Shown: positions 23,822 to 63,953 of the stretch, piece by piece
How positions within the stretch are numbered: position 1 is the stretch's first letter
How the letters are laid out: each line of letters starts with the position of its first letter
Assembly: GCF_964204645.1 (NCBI RefSeq)
Contig: NC_134036.1
Span: 10,085,859-10,149,858, forward strand
DNA length: 64,000 nucleotides
Source: Tubulanus polymorphus
Taxonomy: Eukaryota; Animalia; Nemertea
Direction: 5' to 3'
The notes under the pieces: model-generated
Databases searched by the model: none
What the model was told of the DNA's origin: nothing
Seen by the model: only the letters and a program-made list of their open reading frames with translations
Program-made: the position numbers and the translations under genes

Positions 23822-23853
23822 TTATTATATATATTTTTATTAAAGTTAAAATT

Positions 23854-25100: not shown

Positions 25101-25112
25101 TTTTTATCATGG

Positions 25113-26521: not shown

Positions 26522-26537
26522 TTACATAATAAAAAAA

Positions 26538-27863
26538 TTAAAATTTAAAATATAAAATTCCTCCGATTACAATTCCTATACAAGTTATAGCTAATTTAGT
26601 ATTTTCATGGGATTTATTATCATTATCAGTTTTAATTATATCATGTTGAATAATATCAGTTTTTATATCTTCTGATGTATTATAATCTTTTATTTTAGAA
26701 TCATTATTTAATTTAATATTCTTAGCTTTAGTTTCAGTTGATTGAATATGTTTTTTATTTTTTTCACCTTCCATTAATTTTGGAGCAGTAATAATCTTTT
26801 TATTTATATCATTCAATCCAAATGAATTATTTATTGTTGCAGTTTTAATTAGATTATTATAACCAATTATGTTTCCCATCTTTAATACTAAATCATTAGA
26901 AATAATTAATAGATTAGGGCCTATACAATAATTAAGCCTTACATGAGATTTATCTAAATAATTTTGATATCTTATAATGTTTTCTGGAATAGATCTATTT
27001 TTATCATTATGAATTGAATCTTCAAATAATACTTTGAATTGTTTCTGCGCATCGAATGAAGTGTTATCATTTCCAATTATTGGTGATCTTGTTTCAACTT
27101 GCGCACCTAAAATACATATCAAATAAGTTCTAATAGATTGATTTATTCTTTGTATTCCAGCTTTAGTAAAACCTTCACTATTTTCTAAAATGAAATTAAC
27201 CCAACCATCATTATTTTGTTGTTGTATATTATTATAATATTTTGGTAATTCATTCCAATTTAGTGTTTTTATATCTGAATTTGTCATTATTTTTCCAAAT
27301 TATTTAGTATATAATATTCCTAATCCACCCATTGTTCCAATTTTTGCTCTAAAATCTTTATTTGAATTAATATTAAATTCATTACATATTTTATAAAACT
27401 TAGAAAAATTAATATTATTATTCAATTCTTTGAAATATTTTGAACCTGGTAAAGGACATTCTAATTCATCTAATATTAATTTTATTTGAAAGTAAGTATG
27501 AAATCTAAAAAGTGATAACATCAATGGTAAACTTGGTTTGTTTAAATGATCATTCCAACTAATTCCACATCCTGTTGTTGCACAATAAACAGCAAAATTT
27601 AATTGGTTCTGCCAATACTTCATATTAGATTTTAATAACCATTGTTTTGCCTCATTTAAATTTTTGAAATTAATTGTATACACATGAAATATATTTTCCA
27701 TCTTTACATGAAAATTATTACTTTCAGTAACATAAATATATAAATCAATTAATGAATTTAAAACTTCATTTCTATATGTTATATCTTTATTAAAATCTAT
27801 TGCTGGAATATTATATTTAATTGATTTATTACATTGGAAAGCTTTTGGAATACTATCTACCAT
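26538..27863 (-). pseudogene. C-terminally anchored protein (homolog of 55534-56922), one in-frame stop
   Basis: ORFs 27300-27863 and 26538-27287 share a frame; WQNQLNFAVYCATTGCG motif and C-terminal TM segment. Confidence 0.8.
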
Positions 27864-27879
27864 TTATATAATTAAAAAA

Positions 27880-28314
27880 TTAATAATTTATTAATTCTTT
27901 TAATAATTTATCTTGTTCTTCAACCGTTATATGGCCATTTAAACTTATTATATAATCTAGTGTGTTCTTTAATTTATTAATTTCTTTTATATTAGTTTTA
28001 ATTTTTTCTTTATTACTTTTTATATTTAATTTTGAACTTATACCGGTTAAAACAAATGAACTTAATCCTAACACACCAATTGATATAGCTAAAGGTGTTA
28101 ATGGACTGAATATTGCTAGAAATGTTATTACAGAACTAATTGTAACCGAACCACTTATAATCAAATAATATATAATTTTAGAATTTAGATATTTTTTCTT
28201 TTTTATCTTTAAGTCACTTTCAAATTCTAATATTTGTTTTTCTAAATATGTTTTTAATTTAGTTTTATTTATATCATGAGGAATGATATCAATACTATCA
28301 ACTTTATTTTCCAT
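27880..28314 (-). CDS. Two-TM membrane protein (144 aa)
   Basis: Hydrophobic hairpin IIYYLIISGSVTISSVITFLAIF-SPLTP-LAISIGVLGLSSFVLTGI; homolog at 55083. Confidence 0.8.
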   Translation of the reverse strand: MENKVDSIDIIPHDINKTKLKTYLEKQILEFESDLKIKKKKYLNSKIIYYLIISGSVTISSVITFLAIFSPLTPLAISIGVLGLSSFVLTGISSKLNIKSNKEKIKTNIKEINKLKNTLDYIISLNGHITVEEQDKLLKELINY

Positions 28315-28333
28315 TTATTTAGAATAAAAATTA

Positions 28334-28756
28334 CTAATTAGTAAATTTATAAGCAACAAATATAACAATAACTGTTCCACCTAAAATCCAAATTATTTCA
28401 TATTTCTGTTGTCCTTTACTTGGGGTATAATAATCTGATAATTTAGGTTTGTATAGATGTAATTTTTCTTTATTGGTTACCGCGTTATATAAACTCATAG
28501 CTTCATCAACTGATTGAAAATCTCTATGTGAAGTCTTCTGATCATATAATTCTTTGTTAATATAATCCATATAGTTTTGCCTCTTTTCTCTATATTCTTC
28601 TGCTGCTTTATTATATTTCTCTAATGCTAAGTTATGTCTTCTTTGTTCTCCTAATGAACTATTTTTATCAATATGCTTAAATAAATATCCACCTCCAGTA
28701 AATGCTAAAGCGTTAACACTTGCCGATCCTATAATAGTTATAATTGCAGAAGCCAT
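28334..28756 (-). CDS. Membrane protein (140 aa)
   Basis: Hydrophobic N-terminus, coiled coil (EQRRHNLALEKY) and C-terminal TM; homolog at 54640. Confidence 0.8.
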   Translation of the reverse strand: MASAIITIIGSASVNALAFTGGGYLFKHIDKNSSLGEQRRHNLALEKYNKAAEEYREKRQNYMDYINKELYDQKTSHRDFQSVDEAMSLYNAVTNKEKLHLYKPKLSDYYTPSKGQQKYEIIWILGGTVIVIFVAYKFTN

Positions 28757-28780
28757 TTATTTAGTTAAAAAATTATGCAT

Positions 28781-29002
28781 TTATATGGGAGGAATACATT
28801 TTTGTTTTTCCAAATAATCAATTGTTAAATTAGATAAAGTAACTGCTAATGTTAATTTTAAAATATCATTTATATCAAATCTATCAACATTAACACTTCC
28901 CATTTTGAATACTTTTTTTAATACCATTGAATAACCAACTGTTCCAACTGATAGTAATGCACCATTATATAATCCAGTTATTATCCACTTATTATCACTC
29001 AT
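28781..29002 (-). CDS. Small hydrophobic protein (73 aa)
   Basis: 72 of 73 residues identical to 54394-54615. Confidence 0.8.
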   Translation of the reverse strand: MSDNKWIITGLYNGALLSVGTVGYSMVLKKVFKMGSVNVDRFDINDILKLTLAVTLSNLTIDYLEKQKCIPPI

Positions 29003-29359
29003 TTATTTATCAAAAAAATTACTATCATCAAAATATTTAGTTATCTTATTTATGATTATTTCAACATTTATTTCATTACTAGTTTCATTTGTATATATTT
29101 CAATTATTATTTTTTTAATATCATCGATGATAAAATCTTCATCTAATTCATAAAATCTTAAAGATTCTCTAATTAAATTAGTAATCTTTTCTACATTTAA
29201 AGTTTCTTTATCTATTGTTTTTTCAAACTCAAATGTTGTTTCATTAGAAAATGTGATATTTTTGATATGTGTAATTACATCATTAACGTTAAATTTCATT
29301 TCTTTCTCAAGTTTAAAATCAAACCCAAAACATATACTCGGCCCAACAGTTATATTCAT
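29003..29359 (-). CDS. Hypothetical protein (118 aa)
   Basis: Homolog of 54052-54393 with conserved ends and a divergent middle. Confidence 0.75.
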   Translation of the reverse strand: MNITVGPSICFGFDFKLEKEMKFNVNDVITHIKNITFSNETTFEFEKTIDKETLNVEKITNLIRESLRFYELDEDFIIDDIKKIIIEIYTNETSNEINVEIIINKITKYFDDSNFFDK

Positions 29360-29483
29360 TTATATAGTGAAAAAAAATAAAAATAAATTGGTTGAAAATT
29401 ATATGAATAATATTTATTTTAAAAAAGGGGGTTTTAAGTATTAAATACATTAATACGTATTAGATAGATAGATATACAAATAG

Positions 29484-48779: not shown

Positions 48780-48861
48780 CTTAAAATATTCATATATATA
48801 TGAATAACATTTAAATCATTGAACTTCTAAAATCAATTTTAATAAAAAATATAGTATTAAA

Positions 48862-51800
48862 ATGGAAGCAAATAAGTACTACTGCCCAACATGTAATATC
48901 GATATAGACAAGTCTCAAAAAGCAAGACACAATAAAACTAGAACACATTTAGAGAATAAATTGAAATTAGAATATGAAGATGATATATTAGAAAATAAAT
49001 TAGAAGAATTAAAGGATGAAAAAGAAACATACAAATGTGATACATGTAATCAATCATTCAGTGATAAAAGATATTATAAAGAACATTTAAAATCTATAAG
49101 TCATATTAGAAATAAGAATAATGATATTTTAGGTGAAGATTATTTTGATAATGATAACGATAAGAAACAGAAGACAATTAAAAGAATAAAAAATAAATTA
49201 AACAATAAAAGACCATATATGGAAGATGTAAGAAATTATATTAATTCATTAGATAATAAAAAAGATATAGAGATAACCGAAGCATTTAAAAGTGATATTG
49301 GTCCAGCAGCTATCGAGTTTAAATTTCATAAAGGTAAAACATTAGAAGAAAATAAAAAACATTTAGAAAATATGAAAGAAATAATAAAAATAATTACAAA
49401 CGTAGAATATCCTAAAATAAGTATATCTTCTAAAGTAAAGTTTATAAAATCTGAAGATAAACCAATATATAATATAAATTCTCATTCACAACATATTATA
49501 TCTAAACAACATATAGATGATAAATTAGATAAATGTTATAATGAAATAAAAACTAAAATAGAAGAGAAATATTTTGAAGGATCTGGTTTAATATTTGATG
49601 AGATAATATTTATAACTTTACATGTTTATAACACAAAATATAATAAGTTAACTAAATCAAAACCAATTGATGAAAATAATTTATCATATTATAAAGATGA
49701 TAGTATAAATGGAACAAGTTATATTAAACTACCATTTAAAACTAATGGTGTAATAAATATACAAAATTTTGATAATAAATGTTTTCTATGGGCTATAATA
49801 AGTTGTTTACATCCAACAGAAGATATTACACATAGTTTTAGATTAACTCATTATAAACAATTTGAAAATAATTATAAGATAGATAAGTATCCTGTTAGAA
49901 TTAAAAATATTCCAAAAATAGAAAGAGATAATAATCTAAAAATAAATGTATTTGATTTAATCAAATTACCAAATACAAAAGGAAATAATATTAAACATTA
50001 TACATTAGAACCTTTATACCTATCAAAAGATTATGATTCAAATGATGTTATAGATATACTATATTATGAGAATCATTACATGTGGATTAAACAAATAGAT
50101 TTATTTTTCAAATCAGAAAATGATCACCATAAAATATATCTATGTAGAAAATGTTTACATAGATTCAGTAATGAAAGTACATTATTAAATCATAAACAAC
50201 TATGTGATAATCATGATTATTGTAAATTAGTTTTACCAAATGAAAAGGATAAAATATTAGAATTCAAAAAATATGATTACAAAAATAAAGTACCATTTGT
50301 AATATATGGAGATTTTGAATCATTAAATAAAGAATTAACAGATAAAGATAGAAAAGATATATATTATAAAAGAAAGAAATTAAATTCTAATGAAAGTGAT
50401 TATTCAGAAGACCCACCAAAAACAAATACAATTAAAAAGATTCATCAATCAGCTGCAGCTTTCGGGTTATATATTAAATCTAATTATCCAGAACTAATCG
50501 AAAGTGAATATTATAATTATAGAAATGAAAATGTTATCAATCATTTTTGTGACTTATTAATTGAATATGAAATAAGATTTAGTAAATTATTGAATACAAA
50601 TAAAGAAATAATTATGACAGAAGAAGATAAAGAAGAATTTGAGTTTGCAGATAAATGTTATTATTGTGAAAAGATATTTAATTATAAAGATAAAAAAGTA
50701 AGAGACCATAATCATTTGAATGGAAAGTTTAGAGGCGCTGCACATGAGAATTGTAACTTACAAGCTAAGAAAATTAACTTTGTACCAGTTATATTTCATA
50801 ATCTATCAGGATATGATGCACATTTATTCATCAAACAGTTATGTCATAAAATAGAAGAAATCAATAATGAAATAGAAATATTAAATTCAAATAGATCAAA
50901 AGATAAAATACCAACTTATAAATTTAGAATGTTAGCTAAAACATCTGAGAATTATATATCTTTCCAATTTGGATGCTTAAGATTTATAGATTCATATAGA
51001 TTTTTAAGTAGTTCATTAGATAACTTATCAAAATCATTAGTTGATGATGAATTAAAGATATTAAAAGAATATTACCCAAATAATGATGATTTTCAATTAA
51101 TGAGATATAAAGGAGCAATTCCATATTCTTTCTATAAAAATCATAATGATTTTAAAATAACTGAATTATTAAAAGAACAATTTTATGATGAATTAAAAAA
51201 TGAATATGTTAAAGATGAAGTATATAATAGAACATTGAATATTTGGAATCATTTCAAAATAGAAAATCATGGTCAATTAGTAGATTTATATTTAAAATCA
51301 GATGTATTATTATTAACCGATATATTCGAAAGGTTTAGAGATGTAAACCTAAAATATTTTAACATTGATCCTTGTCATTGTTATTCATCACCAGGATTAA
51401 CATGGGATTGTGGATTAAAATTTACAGATATAAAAATGGATTTGTTAACAAATATAGATCAATTACTATTATTTGAAAAATCTATAAGAGGAGGTGTTTC
51501 AGGTGTATTGGGTGATAGATATTTTAATGTAAATGATAATCCTGGATATGAATTATTATACATAGATGCAAATAATCTTTATGGTTGGGCAATGATGGAA
51601 CCACAACCTTATGGGATGTTTGAAATAACTGAAGTTTTACAAATTGATAAATTTGATTGGAAGAAAAGAATCCTAGATATTGCAGATGATTCAGATACTG
51701 GTTACTTCTTTGTTGTAGATTTAGAATACCCTGAAAATATAAAATTCAAATCTAGAAATCTAGCATATTGTCCCGAACATAAAACTGTTAAACATGAAGA

Positions 51801-52890
51801 ATTATCAAATTATCAAAAAAGAATTAAACCCGATAATCATATTCATACAGAAAAGTTAATGGTAACTCAAGAAGATAAATATAATTATGTAGTACATTAT
51901 AGAATGTTAAAATTCTATTTGAATCAAGGAATGATATTAAAAAAAGTACATAGATATATTTCATTTAATCAATCTAAGTGGTTAGAAAAATATATAGATT
52001 TTAATACTACACAGAGAACTGAAGCTAAAACTGATTTTGAGAAGGATTTTTTTAAGTTAATGAACAATGCGTTCTATGGAAAAACATGTGAAAACATAAG
52101 AAATAGAAGTGATATTGAGTTAGTTAGTAATGGTAAAAGGATAAGGCATTTACAATCGTATCCGAAATTCATAGGTAATAGAATATTCGATGAAAATTTA
52201 GCTGCAGTTAAGATGAGGAGAACTTCTATGAAGTTCAATAAACCAATCTATGTTGGTGCATCAGTTCTAGAAATTTCAAAATTATTAATGTATCAATTTT
52301 ACTATAACATATTACAACCCCATTTTGGAGAAAAAAATATAGAAATATTATATCTAGATACTGACAGTTATATATTAAAGATAAAAAGTGATAATATAAA
52401 TGATGATTTAAAAATATTAAATCATCATTTTGATTTCAGCAATTATCCCAAAGATCATGAACTATTTAGCAATGATAATAAAAAAGTTCCTGGGAAGTTT
52501 AAGGATGAATTAGGTGGTGAAGAAATGATAGAGTTCATAGGTATTAGATCTAAAATGTATTCATATAAAACTAAAGAACATGAAGCTAAAAAGTTAAAAG
52601 GAATTACTAAAAGTGTAGTAGAAAAGAATATTCATTTCAAAGATTACATCAATTGTATATTTAATGAAGAAGTTAGAAAACATAAGATGAAATGTTTAAG
52701 ATCTGAAGATCATGAAATGTATATTGAAGAGATAGAGAAGATAAGTCTAAACCCATTTGATGATAAAAGATATATTTTAGATGATGGAATCCACACAGTC
52801 GCCTATGGTTGCAATTTAGATGAATATATAAAATTCAAAAGAGAAGAAACAAAAGAAAATGAAATTATGAAAAGGATTCTAACGTGTTAA
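48862..52890 (+). CDS. polB: Protein-primed DNA polymerase B (1342 aa) with N-terminal zinc fingers, OTU-like domain and HNH/EndoVII-like insert
   Basis: YGDFES, FHNLSGYD, DANNLYG, KLMNNAFYGK and DTDS motifs; NKCFLWAI...HYMWI; CYYC...RDHNHLNGKFRGAAHENCN. Confidence 0.97.
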   Translation: MEANKYYCPTCNIDIDKSQKARHNKTRTHLENKLKLEYEDDILENKLEELKDEKETYKCDTCNQSFSDKRYYKEHLKSISHIRNKNNDILGEDYFDNDNDKKQKTIKRIKNKLNNKRPYMEDVRNYINSLDNKKDIEITEAFKSDIGPAAIEFKFHKGKTLEENKKHLENMKEIIKIITNVEYPKISISSKVKFIKSEDKPIYNINSHSQHIISKQHIDDKLDKCYNEIKTKIEEKYFEGSGLIFDEIIFITLHVYNTKYNKLTKSKPIDENNLSYYKDDSINGTSYIKLPFKTNGVINIQNFDNKCFLWAIISCLHPTEDITHSFRLTHYKQFENNYKIDKYPVRIKNIPKIERDNNLKINVFDLIKLPNTKGNNIKHYTLEPLYLSKDYDSNDVIDILYYENHYMWIKQIDLFFKSENDHHKIYLCRKCLHRFSNESTLLNHKQLCDNHDYCKLVLPNEKDKILEFKKYDYKNKVPFVIYGDFESLNKELTDKDRKDIYYKRKKLNSNESDYSEDPPKTNTIKKIHQSAAAFGLYIKSNYPELIESEYYNYRNENVINHFCDLLIEYEIRFSKLLNTNKEIIMTEEDKEEFEFADKCYYCEKIFNYKDKKVRDHNHLNGKFRGAAHENCNLQAKKINFVPVIFHNLSGYDAHLFIKQLCHKIEEINNEIEILNSNRSKDKIPTYKFRMLAKTSENYISFQFGCLRFIDSYRFLSSSLDNLSKSLVDDELKILKEYYPNNDDFQLMRYKGAIPYSFYKNHNDFKITELLKEQFYDELKNEYVKDEVYNRTLNIWNHFKIENHGQLVDLYLKSDVLLLTDIFERFRDVNLKYFNIDPCHCYSSPGLTWDCGLKFTDIKMDLLTNIDQLLLFEKSIRGGVSGVLGDRYFNVNDNPGYELLYIDANNLYGWAMMEPQPYGMFEITEVLQIDKFDWKKRILDIADDSDTGYFFVVDLEYPENIKFKSRNLAYCPEHKTVKHEELSNYQKRIKPDNHIHTEKLMVTQEDKYNYVVHYRMLKFYLNQGMILKKVHRYISFNQSKWLEKYIDFNTTQRTEAKTDFEKDFFKLMNNAFYGKTCENIRNRSDIELVSNGKRIRHLQSYPKFIGNRIFDENLAAVKMRRTSMKFNKPIYVGASVLEISKLLMYQFYYNILQPHFGEKNIEILYLDTDSYILKIKSDNINDDLKILNHHFDFSNYPKDHELFSNDNKKVPGKFKDELGGEEMIEFIGIRSKMYSYKTKEHEAKKLKGITKSVVEKNIHFKDYINCIFNEEVRKHKMKCLRSEDHEMYIEEIEKISLNPFDDKRYILDDGIHTVAYGCNLDEYIKFKREETKENEIMKRILTC

Positions 52891-52918
52891 TAAATTTCAA
52901 TAAAAATTTGTATAATAA

Positions 52919-53260
52919 ATGGAGAGTAAACAAGTACACAGTGAATTCTTAGATAGAATTAAAGATACCACAAATGTAAAATCTGTAGATTATAAATTCA
53001 AAAAGTTAACAGAATTAACAATTCACAAGAAATATCTAATTACTAACATTGAAACAATTACTAATAAATATGGAGATAAATTAGTTATACACTTAGAATA
53101 TGAAGGATTAAAAGGAAATACATATAAATTCAGAACTTATTTACCAGATAGATTTCATAGATTATCAAGTGAAGATCTAGAAGAATTATGTTCTGGAGAT
53201 TTCTATTTCGTATACAAAGGTAAGAATGAAAAAGGGCACCATGAAATAGATTTCGAATGA
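52919..53260 (+). CDS. Small conserved protein (113 aa)
   Basis: Conserved in element B; follows pPolB. Confidence 0.8.
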   Translation: MESKQVHSEFLDRIKDTTNVKSVDYKFKKLTELTIHKKYLITNIETITNKYGDKLVIHLEYEGLKGNTYKFRTYLPDRFHRLSSEDLEELCSGDFYFVYKGKNEKGHHEIDFE

Positions 53261-53275
53261 AAATATGTAAAATAA

Positions 53276-54034
53276 ATGGTAGAATTAAAAGAATACAGAA
53301 TATTTGTTGATTCTAGAAAACTTACAAATTATAAATCACATAATTTATTAGTACAATTAGATAGAGAATTCAAGAATTGTGTAGATTTAAAATTAGTAAA
53401 TATAAGTTTATGTAATTCTTTTTACAATATATCAAATAAAACTATTGAACATAATACTTTTTTAATTCATATTAGAAATATAAATAAATGGTTTCATCTA
53501 TTTCTAAGACCAGGATTATATAATTTAGAAACATTATCTCAAGAAATTAATCGTAGAGCACGGTTGAAAATTAGAAAAGATGATAAATTTTTAATAAGAT
53601 TTATAAAAAGTGATAGCTCAAATAGAATTAAAATAAAGGTATTTGATGAAAGTCAACATGCATTTATGGTAAAAAAACCTATAGCTAAATTGCTAGGAAT
53701 TGAACCAGATGTTGTTACAGTAAACGTAGAAGGTATTTCAAATATAATACCTTTTACACATTTTTATATTTATTGCAATTTAATTGACCCAACAAAAACA
53801 TTTGAAGCAACTAAAGATACAACATGTAATTCTAGTATATTAAATATTTTACCATTAAAAAATTTTAAAGAATTTGGAACGCAAATAAATTATAATTTAA
53901 CAGAATGTGATTTCAAACCATGCATTCCTAGTTTTAATAATTTTAGATTAGAAATTAGAAATCATAATGGATACTTAATTGATTTAAATAATTTCCCTGT
54001 AATTTATGAATTATTTATAAGATGTAAAGAGTAA
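53276..54034 (+). CDS. Probable minor capsid (penton) protein
   Basis: Penton-like N- and C-terminal motifs; central region diverged from element B. Confidence 0.75.
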   Translation: MVELKEYRIFVDSRKLTNYKSHNLLVQLDREFKNCVDLKLVNISLCNSFYNISNKTIEHNTFLIHIRNINKWFHLFLRPGLYNLETLSQEINRRARLKIRKDDKFLIRFIKSDSSNRIKIKVFDESQHAFMVKKPIAKLLGIEPDVVTVNVEGISNIIPFTHFYIYCNLIDPTKTFEATKDTTCNSSILNILPLKNFKEFGTQINYNLTECDFKPCIPSFNNFRLEIRNHNGYLIDLNNFPVIYELFIRCKE

Positions 54035-54051
54035 TTTTTTTCACTATATAA

Positions 54052-54393
54052 ATGAATATAACTGTTGGACCGAGTATATGTTTTGGGTTTGATTTTAAAC
54101 ATGGTAAAGAAATGAGAATTAAACTAAATGATGTAATTACTGATATAAAAAGTAAATCATTTAACAATGCATCAATGATTGATAAAGAAAAGTATAATAT
54201 AGAAAAAGTAATTGATTTAATTAAATCACCTTTAGAATATTATGAATTAAATGAAGATGGAATTATTGAAGATATTAAAAACATATTATCCAAAATATAT
54301 GATAATCATAAAACTAGTAATGAAATAAATGTTGAATTAATCATAAATAAGTTAACTAAATATTTTGAAGATAGTAATTTTTTTGATAAATAA
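54052..54393 (+). CDS. Hypothetical protein (113 aa)
   Basis: Homolog of 29003-29359. Confidence 0.75.
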   Translation: MNITVGPSICFGFDFKHGKEMRIKLNDVITDIKSKSFNNASMIDKEKYNIEKVIDLIKSPLEYYELNEDGIIEDIKNILSKIYDNHKTSNEINVELIINKLTKYFEDSNFFDK

Positions 54394-54615
54394 ATGAGTG
54401 ATAATAAGTGGATAATAACTGGATTATATAATGGCGCATTACTATCAGTTGGAACGGTTGGTTATTCAATGGTATTAAAAAAAGTATTCAAAATGGGAAG
54501 TGTTAATGTTGATAGATTTGATATAAATGATATTTTGAAATTAACGTTAGCAGTTACTTTATCTAATTTAACAATTGATTATTTGGAAAAACAAAAATAT
54601 ATTCCTCCCATATAA
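54394..54615 (+). CDS. Small hydrophobic protein (73 aa)
   Basis: Homolog of 28781-29002. Confidence 0.8.
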   Translation: MSDNKWIITGLYNGALLSVGTVGYSMVLKKVFKMGSVNVDRFDINDILKLTLAVTLSNLTIDYLEKQKYIPPI

Positions 54616-54639
54616 ATGCATAATTTTTTTGCTAAATAA

Positions 54640-55057
54640 ATGGCTTCTGCAATTATAACTATTATAGGATCGGCAATTGTTAACGCTTTAGCATTCACTG
54701 GTGGTGGTTATTTATTTAAACATATTGATAAAAATAGTTCATTAGGAGAACAAAGAAGACATAACGTTAGAGAAATACAATAAAGCTGCAGAAGAATATA
54801 GAGAAAAGAGACAAAACTATATGGATTACATCAATAAAGAATTATATGATCAGAAGATTTCACATAGAGATTTTCAATCAGTTGATGATGCAATGAGTTT
54901 ATATAACACAGTAACAAATAAAGAAAAATTACATCTATACAAACCCAAATTATCAGATTATTATACCCCAAGTAAAGAACAACAGAAATATGAAATAATA
55001 TGGATTTTAGGTGGAACTGTTATTGTTATATTTGTTGCTTATAAGTTTACTAATTAA
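54640..55057 (+). pseudogene. Membrane protein, frameshifted near 54765
   Basis: MASAIITIIGS start at 54640; small deletion relative to the intact B copy (28334-28756). Confidence 0.8.
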
Positions 55058-55082
55058 TTATTTATTATTTTTTGTTAAATAA

Positions 55083-55517
55083 ATGGAAGATAAAGTTGAT
55101 AATATTGATATTATTCCTCATGATATAAATAAAACTAAATTAAAAACATATTTAGAAAAACAAATATTAGAATTTGAAAGTGACTTAAAGATAAAAAAGA
55201 AAAAATATTTAAAAAGTAAAATTATATATTATTTGATTATAAGTGGTTCGGTTACAATTAGTTCTGTAATAACATTTCTAGCAATATTCAGCCCATTAAC
55301 ACCTTTAGCTATATCAATTGGTGTATTAGGATTAAGTTCAAGTGTTTTAACCGGTATAAGTTCAAAATTAAATATAAAAAGTAATAAAGAAAAAATCAAA
55401 ACTAATATAAAAGAAATTAATAAATTAAAGAATACACTAGATTATATAATAAGTTTAAATGGTCATAAAACAGTTGAAGAACAAGATAAATTATTAAAAG
55501 AATTAATAAATTATTAA
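55083..55517 (+). CDS. Two-TM membrane protein (144 aa)
   Basis: Homolog of 27880-28314. Confidence 0.8.
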   Translation: MEDKVDNIDIIPHDINKTKLKTYLEKQILEFESDLKIKKKKYLKSKIIYYLIISGSVTISSVITFLAIFSPLTPLAISIGVLGLSSSVLTGISSKLNIKSNKEKIKTNIKEINKLKNTLDYIISLNGHKTVEEQDKLLKELINY

Positions 55518-55533
55518 TTTTTTAATTATATAA

Positions 55534-56922
55534 ATGGTAGATAGTTTTCCAAAAGCTTTCCGATATAATAAATCAATTAAATATAATATTCCAGCAATAG
55601 ATTTTAATAAAGATATTACATATAGAAATGAAGTTTTAGATTCATTAACTAATTTAGAAATTTATGTTACTGAAACTAATAATTTTAATGCAAAGATGGA
55701 AAATATATTTCATGTATATTTAATTAATTTTAAAAAATTGAAAGATGAAAAACAATGGTTATTAAAATCTAATATGAAGTATTGGCAGAATCAATTAAAT
55801 TTTGCTGTTTATTGTGCAACAACAGGATGTGGAATTAGTTGGAATGATCATTTGAATAATTCTAAATATAAATTAATTCAAAGTTTATTTAGATTTCATA
55901 CATACTTTCAAATCAGAATAATATTAAATGAATTAGAGTGCGCTTTACCAGGATCTAGATATTTTAAAGAATTAGATAATAATATTAATTTATCTAAGTT
56001 TTATAAGATTTGCAATGAATTTAATATAGATATAAATAATTCTGATTTTAGAACAAAAATTGGAACAATAAGATCACTTCCTTGCCCTAAAAAGATTGCA
56101 GAATATTGTGCACTTCCCATACCATCTAATAGTTTTTATAATATCTATAATAAAAAATTAGGTTATGGTAAAATAGAAACAAATGATTTAGAAACATTAA
56201 ATTTCAATAAAACACCGAAATTTTATGATAATTTAAAACAAGAAAACAATAATGGTTGGGTTTATTTTATTTTAGAAAATAGTGAAGGTTTTACAAAATC
56301 AGGTATAGAAAGAATAAATCAATCTATTAGAACTTATTTGATTTGTATTCTAGGATCACAAGTTGAAACAAGATCACCGATAATTGGAAATTTGAATACA
56401 TCATTTGATACACAAAAACAATTTAAAGTTTTATTTGAAGATTCCATACATAATGATAAAAATAGATCGATTCCAGAAAACATTATAAGATATCAAAATT
56501 ATTTAGATAAATCTCATGTAAGACTAAATTATTGTATAGGCCCTAATCTATTAATTATTTCTAATGATTTAGTATTAAAGATGGGAAACATAATTGGTTA
56601 TAATAATCTAATTAAAACTGCAACAATAAATAATTCATTTGGATTGAATGATATAAATAAAAAGATTATTACTGCTCCAAAATTAATGGAAGGTGAAAAA
56701 AATAAAAAACATATTCAATCAACTGAAACTAAAACTAAAAATATTAAATTGGATAATGATTCTAAAATAAAAGATTACAGTACATCAGAAAATAATAGAA
56801 CTGATAAAATTCAACATGATATAATTAAACTAAATGATGATAATAAATCCCATGAAAATACTAAATTAGCTATAACTTGTATAGGAATTGTAATCGGAGG
56901 AATATTATATTTTAAATTTTAA
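55534..56922 (+). CDS. 462-aa protein with C-terminal membrane anchor
   Basis: Intact ORF; LAITCIGIVIGGILYFKF tail; conserved in element B. Confidence 0.85.
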   Translation: MVDSFPKAFRYNKSIKYNIPAIDFNKDITYRNEVLDSLTNLEIYVTETNNFNAKMENIFHVYLINFKKLKDEKQWLLKSNMKYWQNQLNFAVYCATTGCGISWNDHLNNSKYKLIQSLFRFHTYFQIRIILNELECALPGSRYFKELDNNINLSKFYKICNEFNIDINNSDFRTKIGTIRSLPCPKKIAEYCALPIPSNSFYNIYNKKLGYGKIETNDLETLNFNKTPKFYDNLKQENNNGWVYFILENSEGFTKSGIERINQSIRTYLICILGSQVETRSPIIGNLNTSFDTQKQFKVLFEDSIHNDKNRSIPENIIRYQNYLDKSHVRLNYCIGPNLLIISNDLVLKMGNIIGYNNLIKTATINNSFGLNDINKKIITAPKLMEGEKNKKHIQSTETKTKNIKLDNDSKIKDYSTSENNRTDKIQHDIIKLNDDNKSHENTKLAITCIGIVIGGILYFKF

Positions 56923-56938
56923 TTTTTTTATTATGTAA

Positions 56939-58500
56939 ATGGATGTAGAAGGTGGAGAAGATTATGAAATGGGAGAAATGGGAAATAATAATGAAGGATA
57001 TATTGATGATGAACCACAACCAGATTTTAATGAAACTAATATTGATAATGATGATGAATCAGCATATAATTCTAATTTAGCAGATAGTGGTTCTAAAGTC
57101 CCATCAACAGATGAATTTGATAGAAGAACTAGATCGAGAATAAATCCTGAAAATGAAAATCAAGGTTTATAAAGACAAAATTTAGAAAATATTGAATATA
57201 TTTATAAGTTTCAAGATGTATTTAAAAAATCTGGATATAATATAAATTACAGAGGCGCCAGACTTTTAGTAAAAGATTTAAAATATTTAGATGGTGAATA
57301 TTATTATAAATTGAAAGATGATTATTATATTAACATCTCTTATAAAACTCAAAATATAATATTAGCAGAATCAACTTTGCTTAAGTTAGAACCAGATAGA
57401 ATTAAGAGAATAAGTAATAGAAATGAAATAACTGATGTTACACAAGAAGAAAGAGATAATAATAGAAAAGAATTTAAACAAAGAATTAATGAATTATTTG
57501 AAATAATCGATAATAATCCAGAAACGGAAATGGAAGAGAATAGAGATAAATTAAGATCTTCAACACCCGAAACATCGAGAAGAGACACTCAACAAATTGA
57601 TAATGATTCAAGTCAATTACAATTAGTATTAGAAAAACAAATTGATAGATTAAGAGATTCATTTGACGAAGAGATGAATAGTGCTGGAATAAATCGAATA
57701 CAATCTTTACTAGAAAAAGGATTACTTGATTTATCAGCTGATGAATTAGAATCATTTCCTGAACAAGCACGTACAGAAATTAAAGGTATGCAAGAATCAG
57801 CTGATAAAATTGCACATGATAAAAGTAAAAGAGATATTAAAATTAGATTTTTAGAAAAAGATAGAACTGATAAAAATAAAGAAATAGAACAATTAAAATT
57901 AGATAGAGATAATAAAGTTATTGAAGAAATTGAATTTAAAAAAAGAAATGCATATTTAGAAAAAGAAATTGATGATTTAGAATATAACATAGAATTACAA
58001 AAAGAAGAAATTAAATTATTGTTAAAATCATATGATTATAATATAAATAGATTAAAAGTTATTTTTAAAGATTTGTTGATTAAACCAAATTCTGAAATAT
58101 CATTAAAAGATAGAATAAAGTTATTATTTAAATTAGAAGGAATAACAATTCTTTCAATTCTAACAGCTGTAACTATGTTATTTACAACAATAGGTTTAGC
58201 TATATCAAATGCTTTAAAATCTACTCCTACTCCCAATAAACCAGATAAACCTCCAGGTAATAATTCTATACAAGATAAAGTTAAAGATGGTTTGAGAAAT
58301 TAGCAAAATATTTATGGGAACTATCTAAAAAATCTGCTGCAGCTTTACCAGGAATTATTGCATCAATTGTTGGTTTCATATTGAAATCTGCAGGAAACAT
58401 TATTAACTTTGCTGCTGAACATATTATTTTATTTTTAATCACAGTTGTAAGTGCTATTATTTTTGGTTTAGTAAATATGATATCAAAAAATATCAAGTAA
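56939..58500 (+). pseudogene. Acidic/coiled-coil protein with C-terminal hydrophobic helices; stop at 57170 and frameshift near 58295
   Basis: ORFs 56939 and 57311 share a frame; the tail LPGIIASIVGFILKSAG...IILFLITVVSAIIFGLV lies in a shifted frame. Confidence 0.75.
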
Positions 58501-58554
58501 ACCATGATATCAAAAAATATCAAAAAATAAATAATTAATTTTTTTGTTAAATAA

Positions 58555-59802
58555 ATGAGTGGGAGTTATATCAGTCCTTCTAAGATTTCTAGAATATCTA
58601 ATGCTATTAAAGCAGAAAGATCACATCATATAATTACTCATAACCCTTCAAATATTAATCCCGATGAAACTTTATATGTTAGAATTCCGAGATTAACACA
58701 AAATACTTTTTATGTTCCAAATAGTATTTATTTATCAGCTGATATAAAAGTAATCGGTAATAATAATAATTATGTTGTTGATAATGTTGGAAGATATTTG
58801 AGTAAAAAGTTAACAATAAAGATTGGTCCGGAAACAGTTTTCTCATTAGATGATTATAATTTATTTTCACATTATAAAGATTTATGGTTAACTAAAGAAA
58901 ACAGAAATAATATGATATTTCAAGGCATCCAATCAGAAAACCAAAATAAATTAAGATCAGAAGCTAATAGCGCAATATTAACAAATGATGTAGATAAATT
59001 GATAAAAAGTATATATGGAAACAAATATAAAATTCCATTAGACTTTGAATTGATAAATAATAATGCACCTTTATATAAATACGCAATTCAAGAAGATGTT
59101 ATATTTGAGATAACATTTGCTCCTGTAAATGAAATTGTAATATCTAGTGTTAATAAAGATATGAGTTATAAATTATCGAATATATGTTTAGAATATGATA
59201 CAGTAACTGATGAAAATATTGCTAGAACAATTCAAACTCAATACAACCAAGGGTTTTCATTATTATATGATTATATTGATAAATTTAAAACTGTAACTAT
59301 TAATGCAAATGATGAAATAATAAATGAGAATATTAACTTCCCAAGAAGATCTATTAAAGGTATATTAATATTTTTTACTATTGGAACATATACTAATGGC
59401 GCAATAAATGTTGACAATTATTATAATCCTGAAATAACAAAAGTAGAAATAACTATCGAAGGTATAGCGAATAAAATATTTTGTCAAGGAATGAGAATGA
59501 TAGATCAATGGGTAGAAATTAAAAAACATTTTATGAATGAAAAAGTAAAATCATTTGAAAATTGTAACATTAATCAAATTGATTATTATACTGGTAATAA
59601 ATATGCATTATGGTTAGATTTTAGAACAACTGAAGATAACTTATTACATGGTTCTGGAAAAAAACTACAAAACACTAAAGATGGAATACAATTATTCATG
59701 ACAAAGAAAAAGGGAATCAAAAATTTTAAAATGCATATTTATATTATATCTGACGCGCAATTAAATATTGTAAATTCACAATTAGATAGTGTTATGTATT
59801 AA
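58555..59802 (+). CDS. Probable double jelly-roll major capsid protein (415 aa)
   Basis: Size, beta-rich pattern (ITHNPSNINPDETLYVRIPRL...LEYD...NINFPRRSIKGILIFF...LWLDFR), high B/C conservation and genomic context. Confidence 0.75.
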   Translation: MSGSYISPSKISRISNAIKAERSHHIITHNPSNINPDETLYVRIPRLTQNTFYVPNSIYLSADIKVIGNNNNYVVDNVGRYLSKKLTIKIGPETVFSLDDYNLFSHYKDLWLTKENRNNMIFQGIQSENQNKLRSEANSAILTNDVDKLIKSIYGNKYKIPLDFELINNNAPLYKYAIQEDVIFEITFAPVNEIVISSVNKDMSYKLSNICLEYDTVTDENIARTIQTQYNQGFSLLYDYIDKFKTVTINANDEIINENINFPRRSIKGILIFFTIGTYTNGAINVDNYYNPEITKVEITIEGIANKIFCQGMRMIDQWVEIKKHFMNEKVKSFENCNINQIDYYTGNKYALWLDFRTTEDNLLHGSGKKLQNTKDGIQLFMTKKKGIKNFKMHIYIISDAQLNIVNSQLDSVMY

Positions 59803-59834
59803 AATTTTAACTTTAATAAAAATATATATAATAA

Positions 59835-60866
59835 ATGGAAGGTGGAATATATGAAATACAAACTCCAAGTGAAATGATATCAGATATATATTATATATTA
59901 CCTTATGATGAATACAGTAAGTATTTTGGAGATTACTTTAATCAATTCAAATATAGAATAAGTAAAATAGATAAGAATATTGATATAAAAATAGAAGATA
60001 ATATTGAAACAAAAATAGAAGATAAGAATGATATTGAATATAAAATAGAAGATAATGTTATACCTTCTACATCGAATGATGATAAGATTGAAACAAAAAT
60101 AGAATATAATATTGAACCTAAAATAGAAAAATCAAATGTTCAACCAAAAGATAACATCAGATGTATGTATTGTGAAGAAGATTTTGATAATTATAATGAT
60201 TATTTATTACACATCAAAAAAGATGAACATATTTTACAATTAGTAAAAACATATGCCAATATGTATAAAAATAAATGCAAAGAGGATCAGAATTATTGTG
60301 CTTTCTGTAATGAATGTATAACAAAGGCTAATTGGGCAAAACATTATAAATTAAAAACAAAAAGTGGAAATGATTCAGCCCATGCAATACAAGTATTTAA
60401 ATCTTGGTGTGAAAAATGTAAAGAATATGTAATATATGATAAACAATTGAATCATAAATACTCAATTAAACATATTGGTACAGATAATGTAATAGAAGAT
60501 CCAACAGTTATAAATCCAAAATTTAATAATAATAATATATTAGATTATCGGTGGTATAGAAAAACATTTATAGATTATTTATTGAGTAATGATATAGTTA
60601 CCATATTGAAAAAGTTAGATAACTTTAAACCAAATGTAAGTTATGCAATGAACTTATTTGAACTTAAATATGATGATTTTAGAGAATTTTTAAATAAACA
60701 TCCATCTAAAACTGAAATCGAAAATTATATTCCAAAAATATTTTCAAGAAAAACATTCAATAAATATAAATTTGGGAATCATTTAGGACTTATATCAAAG
60801 ATAATGCAAAGGGATATATATTTAGAATACAATAAGCTTAAAGAAAAATATGAAAATGAAAATTAA
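59835..60866 (+). CDS. Variable-slot multi-zinc-finger protein (343 aa)
   Basis: CMYC...H...H, CAFC...H and CEKC...H...H fingers; KIED repeats. Confidence 0.75.
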   Translation: MEGGIYEIQTPSEMISDIYYILPYDEYSKYFGDYFNQFKYRISKIDKNIDIKIEDNIETKIEDKNDIEYKIEDNVIPSTSNDDKIETKIEYNIEPKIEKSNVQPKDNIRCMYCEEDFDNYNDYLLHIKKDEHILQLVKTYANMYKNKCKEDQNYCAFCNECITKANWAKHYKLKTKSGNDSAHAIQVFKSWCEKCKEYVIYDKQLNHKYSIKHIGTDNVIEDPTVINPKFNNNNILDYRWYRKTFIDYLLSNDIVTILKKLDNFKPNVSYAMNLFELKYDDFREFLNKHPSKTEIENYIPKIFSRKTFNKYKFGNHLGLISKIMQRDIYLEYNKLKEKYENEN

Positions 60867-61266: not shown

Positions 61267-61878
61267 TTATTTTATAAATTTATATTCATAAGGAAATTGT
61301 AATCTCATAAGTAATTTGGAACCTTTATTATTTTTTAATTTATTCATATATTCATCATGTAATTCAGTAGGTATAATTTGATTTTCTTCCAATGATTGTT
61401 GCATAGATTTTCTATCTTTGTTATAAAATAAAACTAGAAATCTTATATTCTCTCTAAAATCTTTAACAATTGAATTATATTTTTGATTTAAAACCCATGT
61501 TGTTATCCCAAAATGTCTACCAGAGAAAGCTAAATAACATAACTCACTTTCTCTAATTTTAGAATCATGTAAATTTGCGCAATCATCGATAATAAATAAT
61601 GTATTAGATCCTTTATAAATATCTAATGCAATTTTTATACAATTATCTAAATTTTCTTTTACTGTTTTAGGGTCTAATATAATAAACTTTTTTATCTTAA
61701 CTATATCTCTATTATATGTTTTATTCATTTCATATGTAGGACAGAATAATATTATATTATCAAAATGATTTTTATAAATAGTTTCTAACAAATCTAATAT
61801 GAAATGTGTTTTACCACAATTTGTAACTCCAGTAACTAACATATTATGTGGTTCAAATATAAATAAATCTTTATTCAT
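61267..61878 (-). CDS. A32/FtsK-like packaging ATPase
   Basis: GVTNCGKT, FIIDD and GRHFGI motifs. Confidence 0.93.
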   Translation of the reverse strand: MNKDLFIFEPHNMLVTGVTNCGKTHFILDLLETIYKNHFDNIILFCPTYEMNKTYNRDIVKIKKFIILDPKTVKENLDNCIKIALDIYKGSNTLFIIDDCANLHDSKIRESELCYLAFSGRHFGITTWVLNQKYNSIVKDFRENIRFLVLFYNKDRKSMQQSLEENQIIPTELHDEYMNKLKNNKGSKLLMRLQFPYEYKFIK

Positions 61879-62956
61879 TTATTCTTTTAATTTTACTAGA
61901 TAAAATCCATTCATTAAATTTATCATCATATCCTTTATATTTCACCAAAGAATACTTTTTTCCTTTAAGAGTTTTTGTTTTCAATACCTTTTCTATTTTG
62001 TATTCTATTTCATCTGGATTTGGTACTAATGATAATTCTTGTTCATAAAAATAACCTAATATTTCTTCATCTTTTAAATCAAACAATTTATAAACAAATG
62101 GTTTAGTTAATATTATCTTTTTAATTTTAAATATTTCTTCAGTAAAATTAGGGGTATAACCTTTATAAAATGTTTTTCGATATTTAGAAATTCTAACATG
62201 TTGTCCTATTTTAAATTTAGGTTCTCCAAAATCATGTGTAACAAACGCGCCATATAAATTATTCCAAACTATTTCTGAATTTTCTTCTTTTCTAGCTTGT
62301 ATAGGTTTCATATTTATAGAACTATGGTTAGAATTATTATAACCTTTCACTAAATCATTTAACACATCGATATATTTATATGTTTCATTAGCGGTGAAAT
62401 ATTTCCACATTCTAGTTTTCAATGTTTTATTAAATCTTTCTATAACAGATGCTTTTATATCTGAATGTGTTGAAAAATATTCTACATCGTTATCAGTTAA
62501 TAGTTTTTTAAAATGTTTGTTATAAAATTCTTTACCTTCATCAAATTGTATTTTATCTGGGATAGCTTCTTTAAATATTAATTTGAAAGAATTTGTAACT
62601 TCTATACCAGTTTTATTTTTGATTGGAATTGACCATGCGTATCTACTGAATATATCTATAACATTTAGTATCCAAAAATATCCTTTGTTATATTCTTCTA
62701 AGTTTTTCATATCAATTAAATCAGCTTGCCACTGTTGGTCAATATATGAAACCATTACTTTTCTTGTTAAATATTTTTTATCCATCTTTTTATGAATTTG
62801 ATATGTTGGTTGATTTTGTAACCATGATTTTAATTCACTATATTTTATATTGCTATTATCAGATTTAATTTTATTCCATAATTCTGAAACGTTAGAATAT
62901 GATACTTCACTTTCTGGGTTGTAATATAAATCTCTCAAATATTGTTCTTTTTTCAT
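61871..62956 (-). CDS. int: rve integrase with chromodomain
   Basis: QWQADLIDM, QFDEGKEF and IERFNKTLK (DDE triad intact); C-terminal chromodomain. Confidence 0.95.
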   Translation of the reverse strand: MKKEQYLRDLYYNPESEVSYSNVSELWNKIKSDNSNIKYSELKSWLQNQPTYQIHKKMDKKYLTRKVMVSYIDQQWQADLIDMKNLEEYNKGYFWILNVIDIFSRYAWSIPIKNKTGIEVTNSFKLIFKEAIPDKIQFDEGKEFYNKHFKKLLTDNDVEYFSTHSDIKASVIERFNKTLKTRMWKYFTANETYKYIDVLNDLVKGYNNSNHSSINMKPIQARKEENSEIVWNNLYGAFVTHDFGEPKFKIGQHVRISKYRKTFYKGYTPNFTEEIFKIKKIILTKPFVYKLFDLKDEEILGYFYEQELSLVPNPDEIEYKIEKVLKTKTLKGKKYSLVKYKGYDDKFNEWILSSKIKRINE

Positions 62957-62962
62957 CTTATT

Positions 62963-63358
62963 TTAATCCATTAATAATAATCTTGGTTTATTTTCAATGA
63001 CTTTATCATTTGACTTATTTTCTGGTATGATAGGTTTATTGTCATTGGAATCATCTTTATCATCAGATTTGAATTTTGATTTATATATTACACCAGATAA
63101 TATAATAACTGTTACTAATCCAATTGTAATATATAATTTATAATTACTTCCAGCATTAGAAGAATTAGATGGATTATTATTTGAATCAATACCACCGTGT
63201 GGGTGCCGTACGGCACCATCAGATAATTTCTGTGATTCATTTATATCAGTTAATTTCTTTTTCTTAGCTTTTTTTAATTCTGATGATCTTTTACCTAATT
63301 CTCTTGCCCATTTAATTTGTTTCTCGGATCTAGGCTTTTTCTTAACGCTATCACTCAT
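62963..63358 (-). CDS. Basic single-TM protein (131 aa) with a 9-aa insertion
   Basis: Homolog of 31186-31557 plus GAVRHPHGG. Confidence 0.8.
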   Translation of the reverse strand: MSDSVKKKPRSEKQIKWARELGKRSSELKKAKKKKLTDINESQKLSDGAVRHPHGGIDSNNNPSNSSNAGSNYKLYITIGLVTVIILSGVIYKSKFKSDDKDDSNDNKPIIPENKSNDKVIENKPRLLLMD

Positions 63359-63953
63359 TTATTTTAGTTAATTTTTGTTCTGATTCATTTTCTGTTTCAC
63401 TGTTTGGTTGTAGTACATCTGTTTCGTTCTTACCTGATTTATATTCCATAGGTTTGATGTTCGAAAATGTTATGACACCAGTAGAAATTAATGTCATAAC
63501 CGATCCTAATTGAAATGAAGCATAACCGACCCATTTTTGTAATTCAGTCATAACTAAATAGTCATTTTTCAAATCATTATATAATTTATTTTCATCATCA
63601 ATTGGTATTAACTGGTTACATAATTTTGAATAACATTTGACAATACCATTCGAAATAGAATCATTTATTTTAGATAATCTTGCCTCTTCATAAATCTTAA
63701 AATATTTTATTACTTTTTCTTTATTCATATTATCTAATTCTTGAAAAGTTATTGTTTTACCAATAAACTCTTTAGTTTTTCCACTCGCAATCAATAGTTC
63801 TAGATGATGCTTACAATATAAATAGTATTCATAATCTATATTGTTATTAACTTGAATAGAATTAGAAACAACTGTATCCTTATTATCACTAATACCTAAA
63901 TCATCTAATGTTTTTTCAATATCAATACTATTCTTATTAGATTTCTTTGACAT
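63351..63953 (-). CDS. Hypothetical protein (200 aa)
   Basis: Homolog of 31550-32152. Confidence 0.8.
   Translation of the reverse strand: MSKKSNKNSIDIEKTLDDLGISDNKDTVVSNSIQVNNNIDYEYYLYCKHHLELLIASGKTKEFIGKTITFQELDNMNKEKVIKYFKIYEEARLSKINDSISNGIVKCYSKLCNQLIPIDDENKLYNDLKNDYLVMTELQKWVGYASFQLGSVMTLISTGVITFSNIKPMEYKSGKNETDVLQPNSETENESEQKLTKINE

Follow-up and report, generated by a model that had tools for sequence, protein, structure and literature searches.

The stretch of DNA analysed in this study (the window) comprises 64,000 nucleotides of the nemertean Tubulanus polymorphus and holds three virus-like elements, A, B and C, the last of which carries at 54052-59802 a block of seven consecutive genes ending with that of the major capsid protein. 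This block, and the kind of particle that it could build, are the subject here. Element A occupies about 1-14 kb (GC 36-43%), B spans 18.7-33.1 kb and C runs from ~48572 to the window end; the GC content is 22-25% in B and C, against 34-38% in the DNA separating them. B and C are copies of one family, different from A, which is a canonical Maverick with a polymerase matching PF03175, an rve-chromodomain integrase and an adenain-like protease of 154 amino acids (aa; Peptidase_C5, E 6.6e-4, below cut-off). The polymerases and capsid proteins of A and C show no significant pairwise BLASTP similarity; the polymerase alignment is limited to the motif C region (E 0.34), and the capsid comparison gave E 0.30. 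C is nearly intact, and the polymerase, capsid, 462-aa and large-protein genes are broken in B. C ends at the window edge after 63953 and B is truncated on the left; combined, they span the polymerase through an HNH gene, the latter contributed by B. The features of the block are as follows (L numbers denote related metagenome loci, described below).

54032..54054, + strand: late-type promoter-like motif, ending on the start codon of the block's 113-aa gene
54052..54393, + strand: 113-aa protein without hydrophobic segment; its N-terminus alone is conserved, only in the close clade L002-L004
54394..54615, + strand: 73-aa small protein, moderately hydrophobic; its family adjoins the 140-aa family across the lineage; late-type motif
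54640..55057, + strand: gene of the 140-aa family, frameshifted in C; late-type motif at its start
55083..55517, + strand: 144-aa two-helix-hairpin protein, close clade only; weak SLATT-like matches; late-type motif
55534..56922, + strand: 462-aa tail-anchored protein of no known family or fold; late-type motif
56939..58500, + strand: large-protein gene, broken in C; late-type motif at its start
58555..59802, + strand: major capsid protein, 415 aa, double jelly roll; late-type motif

Six genes, encoding proteins of 113, 73, 140, 144 and 462 aa and a large helical protein, thus lie between the penton-like gene and the capsid gene. Hydrophobic segments were located on the Kyte-Doolittle scale in 19-residue windows. 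The 144-aa protein has a hydrophobic two-helix hairpin (residues 51-93), the 462-aa protein a C-terminal tail anchor (444-462), the 78-aa remnant of the 140-aa gene in C one C-terminal segment (59-77), and the large protein a segment at 207-225 of its 257-aa open reading frame (ORF) beginning with ATG. The 73-aa protein peaks at 1.16, under the transmembrane threshold, and 1.5 is reached in 4 of the 13 members of its family. An earlier note on this DNA had counted five hydrophobic or transmembrane genes between penton and capsid; the ORF positions and the anchors of the 140-aa, 144-aa, 462-aa and large proteins agree with it, but the genes are six and the 73-aa product falls below the threshold. 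It had also listed proteins of 140 and ~520 aa, and both genes are broken in C. The former carries a frameshift there from a 5-nt indel relative to B, in which the ORF is intact (28334-28756, - strand). The large gene has an in-frame stop in C at 57170-57172 and a frameshift near 58285-58303, and ~520 aa are obtained only by read-through; in B it is broken at other sites.

Intact homologues of the large protein have 485 aa in L002 and 448 aa in L001, within a natural range of 423-485 aa. Their N-terminus is acidic and variable and is followed by a charged helical stretch; in the conserved C-terminal block, a strong transmembrane helix is joined by a Pro-rich linker to an amphipathic helix, and one or two further hydrophobic helices come after it. 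The strong first helix and further hydrophobic segments are present in all 16 of 16 family members. Although the region has charge and little Pro or Gly, the coiled coil formerly assigned to this protein was not recovered, no window scoring above threshold in a crude heptad test. In the 140-aa family, a hydrophobic Gly/Ala-rich N-terminal segment occurs in 13 of 13 members and a C-terminal transmembrane helix in 12 of 13. SLATT (PF18142) is matched by all four members of the 144-aa family (E 2.5e-4 to 0.023, all below the 26.5-bit cut-off), and one of them weakly matches DUF4231; the resemblance to SLATT, a two-helix effector, may be regarded as a lead. PulA_N1 exceeds the Pfam cut-off in three of the four (up to 33.9 bits), over the C-terminal Ser/Lys/Asn-rich part, which is probably an artefact of composition.

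The 462-aa protein has a conserved helical globular domain (~1-375), a variable disordered linker and a C-terminal transmembrane helix, the anchor being present in 30 of 39 family members. Its AlphaFold model (39 sequences; pLDDT 66.5, pTM 0.67) has a confident core at 1-170 and 240-375. Such an architecture is not that of a soluble capsid cement protein, the outcome which the earlier note had named as speaking against a membrane role, and a true capsid protein is out, since the model is helical and without a jelly roll. No Pfam family fits, and the ESM Atlas gave no usable match. Among the invariant positions are Cys99 and His122, with Cys94 and Cys160 close to invariant. The conserved Gln, Cys99 and His122 suggested a papain-like protease, which is unsupported: the model puts the conserved His inside a long helix, papain-like proteases are not known to carry theirs within such a helix, and no protease fold was returned by Foldseek (PDB, BFVD) or VIA-align. 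A candidate Cys/His metal or disulfide site is as likely an explanation of these residues. No fusogen or pore-former fold was found in the two structures modelled, those of the 462-aa and capsid proteins.

The genes of the block are further united by what precedes them. Each of the seven opens with a run of 6-7 T, a spacer of 6-7 nt and TAAATG, in which ATG is the start codon (starts 54052, 54394, 54640, 55083, 55534, 56939 and 58555). On both strands of C (15.4 kb) there are nine such sites, seven of them the block starts, against 1.2 on average and 5 at most in shuffled sequences; six of six sites in B lie at the same genes, and the remaining 32.5 kb of the window has one. Taking 54640 as the start of the 140-aa gene, 13 of the 15 genes in C begin with TAAATG, compared with 0 of 10 in element A. 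Translation context could not account for this, as only 8% of the 636 ATGs in C follow TAA, and T at -3 is not the usual eukaryotic start context. Similarly, the TAA as an upstream stop codon in termination-reinitiation holds for the junction of the 113-aa and 73-aa genes only, the other genes being at least 16-25 nt from the previous stop. A second class of motif, an A-run ~10-12 nt before (T/A)AAATG, is found at the polymerase, first 113-aa, penton-like, 343/296-aa and HNH genes.

Published systems are compared in what follows on the basis of the portions of the cited papers that were available. According to a review, the late promoters of vaccinia consist of a core containing T, a spacer of 5-7 bp and TAAAT(G/A), and drive virion membrane and morphogenesis genes (PMC5294985). 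Judged by its letters, the motif shared by the block has this layout, and the pattern so defined is present at 7 of 7 genes. Among the matches listed for literature on polintons, mavericks, virophages and late promoters TAAAT was absent, and the occurrence of a poxvirus-late-type motif across the whole block is a new observation. The AT-rich relatives L001-L004 have 21 T-class sites, of which 16 stand at the start of an ORF of at least 60 codons. The late-type motif also opens a deoxynucleoside kinase gene in L002 (10340-10981, - strand; PF01712, E 1.7e-31). Twelve GC-richer relatives have one T-class site in total and show other short upstream motifs; by eye, GTTCAATA or its complement occurs 10-20 nt before starts in L022, L025 and L041, and TTTAAAAATAATCT at the same distance in L030.

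A metagenome scan with the 462-aa protein matched 595 stretches, 343 of them encoding a relative, and 80 loci, most of them short, were kept; 150 of 7996 candidates scored had E <= 0.001. Profile searches gave 3278 clusters at 50% identity for the 462-aa family (575 at E <= 1e-30), 2392 for the 140-aa family and 2025 for the capsid protein. In the ORFs of the 80 loci, BLASTP found 13 of the 73-aa family, 14 of the 140-aa family, 18 of the 200-aa family encoded beside the packaging ATPase, and 23-25 with the C-terminal membrane block of the large protein; tblastn found the capsid protein in 32 loci and the ATPase in 24. Four proteins, the two of 113 aa and those of 131 and 144 aa, were only found in the close AT-rich clade L002-L004. 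Among the related loci the GC content varies between 20% and 59%, yet the hydrophobic segments persist. In distant GC-rich relatives the 462-aa and large genes lie between the penton-like and capsid genes, as in C, and the 73-aa and 140-aa genes come after those of the ATPase and the 200-aa family. Scans of IMG/VR with the 462-aa, capsid and 140-aa alignments gave no confirmed relative. The lineage is large, each core family comprising about 2000-3300 protein clusters; it has no annotation in Pfam and did not turn up in the IMG/VR scans.

The 73-aa, 140-aa, 144-aa and 462-aa genes are under purifying selection, with dN/dS of 0.06-0.29, 0.16-0.30, 0.21-0.27 and 0.22-0.27, respectively; for comparison, the capsid gene has 0.23 and the ATPase 0.09-0.16. 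Values of 0.06-0.09 are seen even between B and C for the integrase, the ATPase and the 73-aa gene, therefore the divergence of the two copies arose mostly under selection and not by decay in place; the block's 113-aa gene has 0.67. The block of B (23811..29379, - strand; several genes broken) corresponds to 54032-59845 of C, inverted (29379-23811) between inverted repeats at 22466-22885 and 29365-29569. Because it was inverted as a unit, the block can be regarded as a discrete cassette, and L002 shows a third arrangement of it. The repeats of B comprise stretches of 41-68 nt with 75-94% complementarity, which suggests that recombination between intergenic repeats was behind the inversion.

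The capsid protein was modelled from a 15-homologue alignment (AlphaFold, pLDDT 76, pTM 0.80) as a double jelly roll. Foldseek gave 280 PDB matches at E <= 0.001, headed by PBCV-1 (8h2i, E 9e-17, TM-score 0.60-0.63), the iridovirus SGIV and EhV-201, with Faustovirus, mavirus (E 2e-11) and vaccinia D13 lower down; the best-matching viruses carry internal membranes. Capsid_N was matched below threshold by 13 of the 15 homologues. With these nearest folds, and E 0.30 against the capsid protein of A, the capsid of C is not of the Maverick type. The penton-like label is weak: DUF5901 matches are below threshold in 6 of 23 members, and that to PBCV-1 P1 is non-significant (E 0.38). Profiles of both proteins found nothing significant among PDB sequences.

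The absence of an adenain-like protease from B and C, as claimed in the earlier note, was confirmed and extended to the relatives. Pfam recognised no protease in all 16 proteins of C and no peptidase (E <= 0.001) in 66 ORFs from 8 long related loci. When the protease of element A was run with phmmer --max against 4781 stop-to-stop ORFs from B, C and the 80 loci, the best E was 0.12, for two contig-edge fragments. The 200-aa family is out as the missing cysteine protease, its alignment being without a conserved Cys or His. An adenain-like protease is present in most Mavericks and was found in neither B, C nor the 80 related loci. Yutin et al. (2015; PMC4642659) found a maturation protease in none of the polinton-like viruses (PLVs), and the protease-less state of B and C is thus a known PLV state. 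The double-jelly-roll capsid, the A32 ATPase and the weakly supported penton-like protein also agree with that group, as defined there. On the other hand, C has the rve integrase that characterises Mavericks/Polintons (Polintoviricetes). B and C had previously been viewed as aberrant Mavericks; given the lack of significant similarity to A, the PBCV-1/iridovirus/EhV-like capsid and the PLV hallmark of lacking a protease (PMC4642659), this view is abandoned. They are likely to represent a PLV-type virus with a replication and integration module in Maverick style, either acquired or retained.

Based on these results, we interpret 54052-59802, with moderate confidence, as the late virion-building set of an endogenous, protease-less PLV whose particle is predicted to have an internal lipid membrane. 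Such a membrane is likely, as it gives the most economical role to four co-conserved families of integral proteins encoded beside a giant-virus-type capsid gene; the virion membrane suggested in the earlier note is now better supported, and remains a prediction. Viruses with a double-jelly-roll capsid and an internal membrane encode small integral membrane proteins together with their capsid genes. By this working principle, insertion into host endomembranes is predicted for four proteins (462 aa, tail-anchored; 140 aa, bitopic; 73 aa, small; and the large one with its three-helix block), which would recruit the capsid and penton proteins onto a vesicle, as in PRD1, PBCV-1 and the iridoviruses. 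With its long helical part, the large protein could serve as a scaffold or ruler between shell and membrane, and the ATPase would fill the particle via a membrane-lined vertex. No maturation protease would be needed, given that there are no adenovirus-type core proteins to process; tectiviruses are not known to have an adenain-type protease either. The literature surveyed describes no such particle for animal viruses of the Maverick/polinton type, and the block provides a defined set of candidate virion membrane proteins, including the 462-aa family without a known fold.

Several points weigh against this interpretation. The membrane-containing particle of the lineage is a prediction from genes. 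No membrane protein of the block matches a known virion membrane protein; profiles of the 462-aa, large-protein and 140-aa families found nothing significant among PDB sequences, and the 462-aa model, itself of moderate confidence (pLDDT 66.5), found nothing at E <= 0.001 in PDB and BFVD with Foldseek and no chain with Z >= 5 among 48161 with VIA-align (top Z 4.2, a 37-residue helical hairpin). In the window, the 73-aa and 200-aa proteins are not clearly membrane-spanning, and the 144-aa and 131-aa proteins, limited to the close clade, are not core. Two block genes are broken in C, and at the frameshift site of the 140-aa gene (~54764) most of the DNA reads covering it are without the five extra bases of B. 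The broken variant seems to have multiplied, possibly by trans-complementation or segmental amplification, and because of these two observations much of the family in the host genome may be defective. The label 'late' is given by analogy to the motif, and entry, egress or factory formation could instead be the function of the hydrophobic proteins.

This last possibility can be stated more specifically. The hydrophobic proteins may form a membrane-lytic or pore-forming toolkit, which either leaves a membrane-less capsid and breaches the endosome or is produced late for cell lysis; this would match the role proposed for the PLA2, gasdermin-like and cupiennin-like proteins of adintoviruses. The sub-threshold SLATT matches in all four 144-aa members would agree with it, SLATT being a two-helix pore-effector domain, as would the strictly conserved Gly/Ala-rich hydrophobic N-terminus of the 140-aa family, which recalls the membrane-active peptides of non-enveloped viruses. 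Moreover, adintoviruses reportedly encode three classes of membrane-active proteins (PMC8502044). However, tail anchors, a three-helix block and a bitopic topology are features of stable integration and not of released lytic peptides, four separate families have been conserved alongside the capsid gene in a lineage that numbers thousands of clusters, and the nearest capsid folds are those of viruses with an internal membrane, so this explanation is considered rather unlikely. It is improbable that a protease was simply missed, being divergent, located elsewhere in full-length copies or supplied in trans by Mavericks like A, in which case an ordinary membrane-less Maverick-type capsid would be accompanied by accessory proteins. 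The sequence of C breaks off at the window end beyond 63953 and that of B lacks its left part, element A with its adenain-like gene (Peptidase_C5 E 6.6e-4, below cut-off) lies 30 kb away, and small unassigned ORFs exist, i.e., the 113-aa genes and a 154-167-aa gene of the GC-rich relatives. Yet B and C together reach from polymerase to HNH, L002 adds 11.5 kb of an intact close relative, and neither Pfam nor phmmer found a peptidase in them; the 200-aa family, the one alignment examined, has no conserved catalytic Cys or His, the capsid and polymerase are unrelated in sequence to those of A, and PLVs as a rule have no protease (PMC4642659). The block as decayed junk, with hydrophobic ORFs produced by AT-rich composition, is scarcely credible. 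A GC content of ~23% does enrich Ile, Phe, Leu and Lys codons, and two block genes are broken in C and more in B, but the same hydrophobic segments are kept in homologues at 20% to 59% GC, dN/dS is well below 1 for the 73-aa, 140-aa, 144-aa and 462-aa genes, and the families have thousands of clusters.

Dependence on a helper virus is possible by analogy with virophages, whose genes carry the late promoter of their giant-virus helper (PMC6723459). In the earlier note the membrane proteins were suggested to engage helper-virus membranes; the poxvirus-late-type motif on every gene of the block, which that note had not seen, lends the helper idea independent support and speaks for transcription by a helper, not specifically for use of its membranes. 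We propose tentatively, as a reading that is more doubtful than the membrane itself, that B, C and their AT-rich relatives are virophage-like viruses of animal genomes, with both motif classes as poxvirus-type promoters, that stay silent until an AT-rich poxvirus-like giant virus infects, are transcribed in its cytoplasmic factory and build membrane particles from the same membrane supply; the hundreds of integrated copies could then be an inducible defence, like mavirus in Cafeteria. The motif offers a cheap test of helper dependence and a search image for the missing helper. If the dependence is true, virophage-type biology would extend from protists to animals with integrated copies, and with a poxvirus-like helper this would be the first such inducible system in an animal.

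Comparison with known systems shows a mixture of characters. With the PLVs, B and C share the minimal module of capsid, penton-like protein and A32 ATPase, the lack of a protease, the giant-virus/PLV-type capsid and a size of ~15-20 kb, but add an rve-chromodomain integrase, which the available text of PMC4642659 records in one integrated algal element only, and a polymerase of protein-primed type. They also occur in hundreds of copies, likely in an animal genome, with a conserved set of membrane proteins not described in that text, and literature on PLVs and transmembrane proteins gave no work on such proteins among the matches listed. Canonical Mavericks, Polintons and adintoviruses share with them a polymerase with family-B motifs, the rve-chromodomain integrase, penton, capsid and ATPase as well as integration in multiple copies; element A, as their example, differs in its adenain-like protease, the absence of TAAATG from its ten gene starts and its non-significant BLASTP results for polymerase and capsid, and the membrane-active proteins of adintoviruses are of the PLA2, gasdermin and cupiennin kinds and not integral membrane proteins (PMC8502044). 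The animal PLV-like ATPases that fall outside the principal Maverick groups, and the 'group 2' Maverick-Polintons, of 10.64898/2026.06.19.733378 show the same swap as that between L022 and L025, which have an SF1 helicase, and L041, which has a polymerase; they are likened to B and C by description only, the gene set not being described in the available text. Homologues of B and C come from sources named as the sea slug Elysia marginata and bivalve-symbiont bins, names which may point to mollusc genomes and are animal-associated, as are the lineages of that study.

Mriyaviruses and related small viruses share with giant viruses a homologue of an envelope protein and a two-helix membrane protein (PMC11253617; 10.64898/2026.06.19.733378), and some mriyavirus-related clusters carry rve integrases (10.64898/2026.06.19.733378). 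These small viruses, similar to nucleocytoplasmic large DNA viruses, resemble B and C in the small genome, giant-virus-like capsid module and conserved membrane or envelope proteins (PMC11253617). Unlike them, B and C are without HUH, VLTF2 and VLTF3; the likeness to Mriya_48 and Mriya_50 is by description only, and the 462-aa model had no BFVD match. The virophages mavirus and Sputnik are likewise integrated in multiple copies, small and of double-jelly-roll type, with a late-promoter motif on their genes (PMC6723459), and mavirus shares with B and C the protein-primed polymerase and rve integrase; virophages, however, encode a cysteine protease and have protist hosts, and the motif of B and C is poxvirus-like and not that of mimivirus or CroV. 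PLVs associated with entomopoxviruses, proposed to be hyperparasites of poxviruses, are similar in being small, PLV-like and tied to an AT-rich poxvirus of animals, one of them being integrated in a beetle genome (PMC11296320). All four of four have an adenovirus-type protease and none a detectable rve integrase, so they are out as the B/C lineage on gene content; promoters are not discussed in the main text of that paper. For nematode Mavericks with a herpesvirus gB-like fusogen, membrane-bearing particles were also proposed (10.1101/2022.07.12.499685); there, one captured fusogen of class III bears a signal peptide and the envelope is external, whereas B and C have no fusogen-like fold or signal peptide, and several small integral proteins suggest an internal membrane. 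PRD1, PBCV-1 and the iridoviruses share the closest capsid folds; no homology of membrane proteins to theirs was found, and the comparison is one of working principle only.

The copy number of the family was estimated from raw DNA reads under the same species label, with about 12% of the run covered. The single-copy flank at 47201-48400 has a summed depth of ~1.8, and the element ~107 to 977, i.e., roughly 60-540 fold; the region of the 343-aa gene has ~29-67. The copies are diverged, since only 4% of the placed reads are at least 99% alike. At 48571/48572 about 1570 reads end, with poorly agreeing continuations; here lies the left end of the element, which is inserted at many sites. Eighty-three reads join 48839 to 59818 and represent an internal-deletion derivative, and other copies have small indels at both frameshift sites of C.

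Outside the block, element C has the following genes.

48862..52890, + strand: polymerase, 1342 aa; exonuclease and polymerase motifs of family B recognised by eye; 35% identical to the polymerase-sized ORF of L041 over 1194 aa
between the polymerase and penton-like genes, + strand: first 113-aa gene
53276..54034, + strand: penton-like protein, 252 aa, on weak evidence; A-run-class promoter-like motif
59835..60866, + strand: 343-aa protein with Cys/His finger-like motifs; variable cargo, a 296-aa gene standing instead in B; low depth among copies
61267..61878, - strand: A32-type packaging ATPase (PF04665, E 1.3e-11)
61871..62956, - strand: rve integrase (PF00665, E 8.5e-9, 36 bits against a cut-off of 32.6)
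62963..63358, - strand: 131-aa single-pass membrane protein, weakly constrained; close clade only
63351..63953, - strand: 200-aa family protein, adjoining the ATPase and conserved across the lineage; no conserved Cys/His

The motifs of the polymerase include one of the YxDTDS type, as these motifs are usually defined; no Pfam match to PF03175 (protein-primed polymerase) and no NCBIfam or PDB match was obtained for it. Its N-terminus has C2H2 fingers, and residues 586-634 are endonuclease VII/HNH-like (PF02945, E 1.7e-4, below cut-off). The integrase has a chromodomain-like C-terminal stretch, with a Chromo match below cut-off. The 131-aa protein is the transmembrane protein noted earlier after the integrase, its hydrophobic segment lying at residues 73-91. 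NCBIfam gave nothing relevant for six proteins, and PHROGs, searched with 13, named the HNH gene as the sole one. No terminal inverted repeats were found by blastn between the left end of C and the right end of B; GC-richer tandem repeats of ~100 nt at 33250-33560, after the HNH gene of B, may be terminal repeats. Element A contains a full TATA-binding-protein gene (8848-9372, + strand; PF00352, E 4.6e-33). Between A and B lies a reverse-transcriptase fragment (16987-17856, - strand; PF00078, E 8.1e-8), and the region is a nest of mobile elements.

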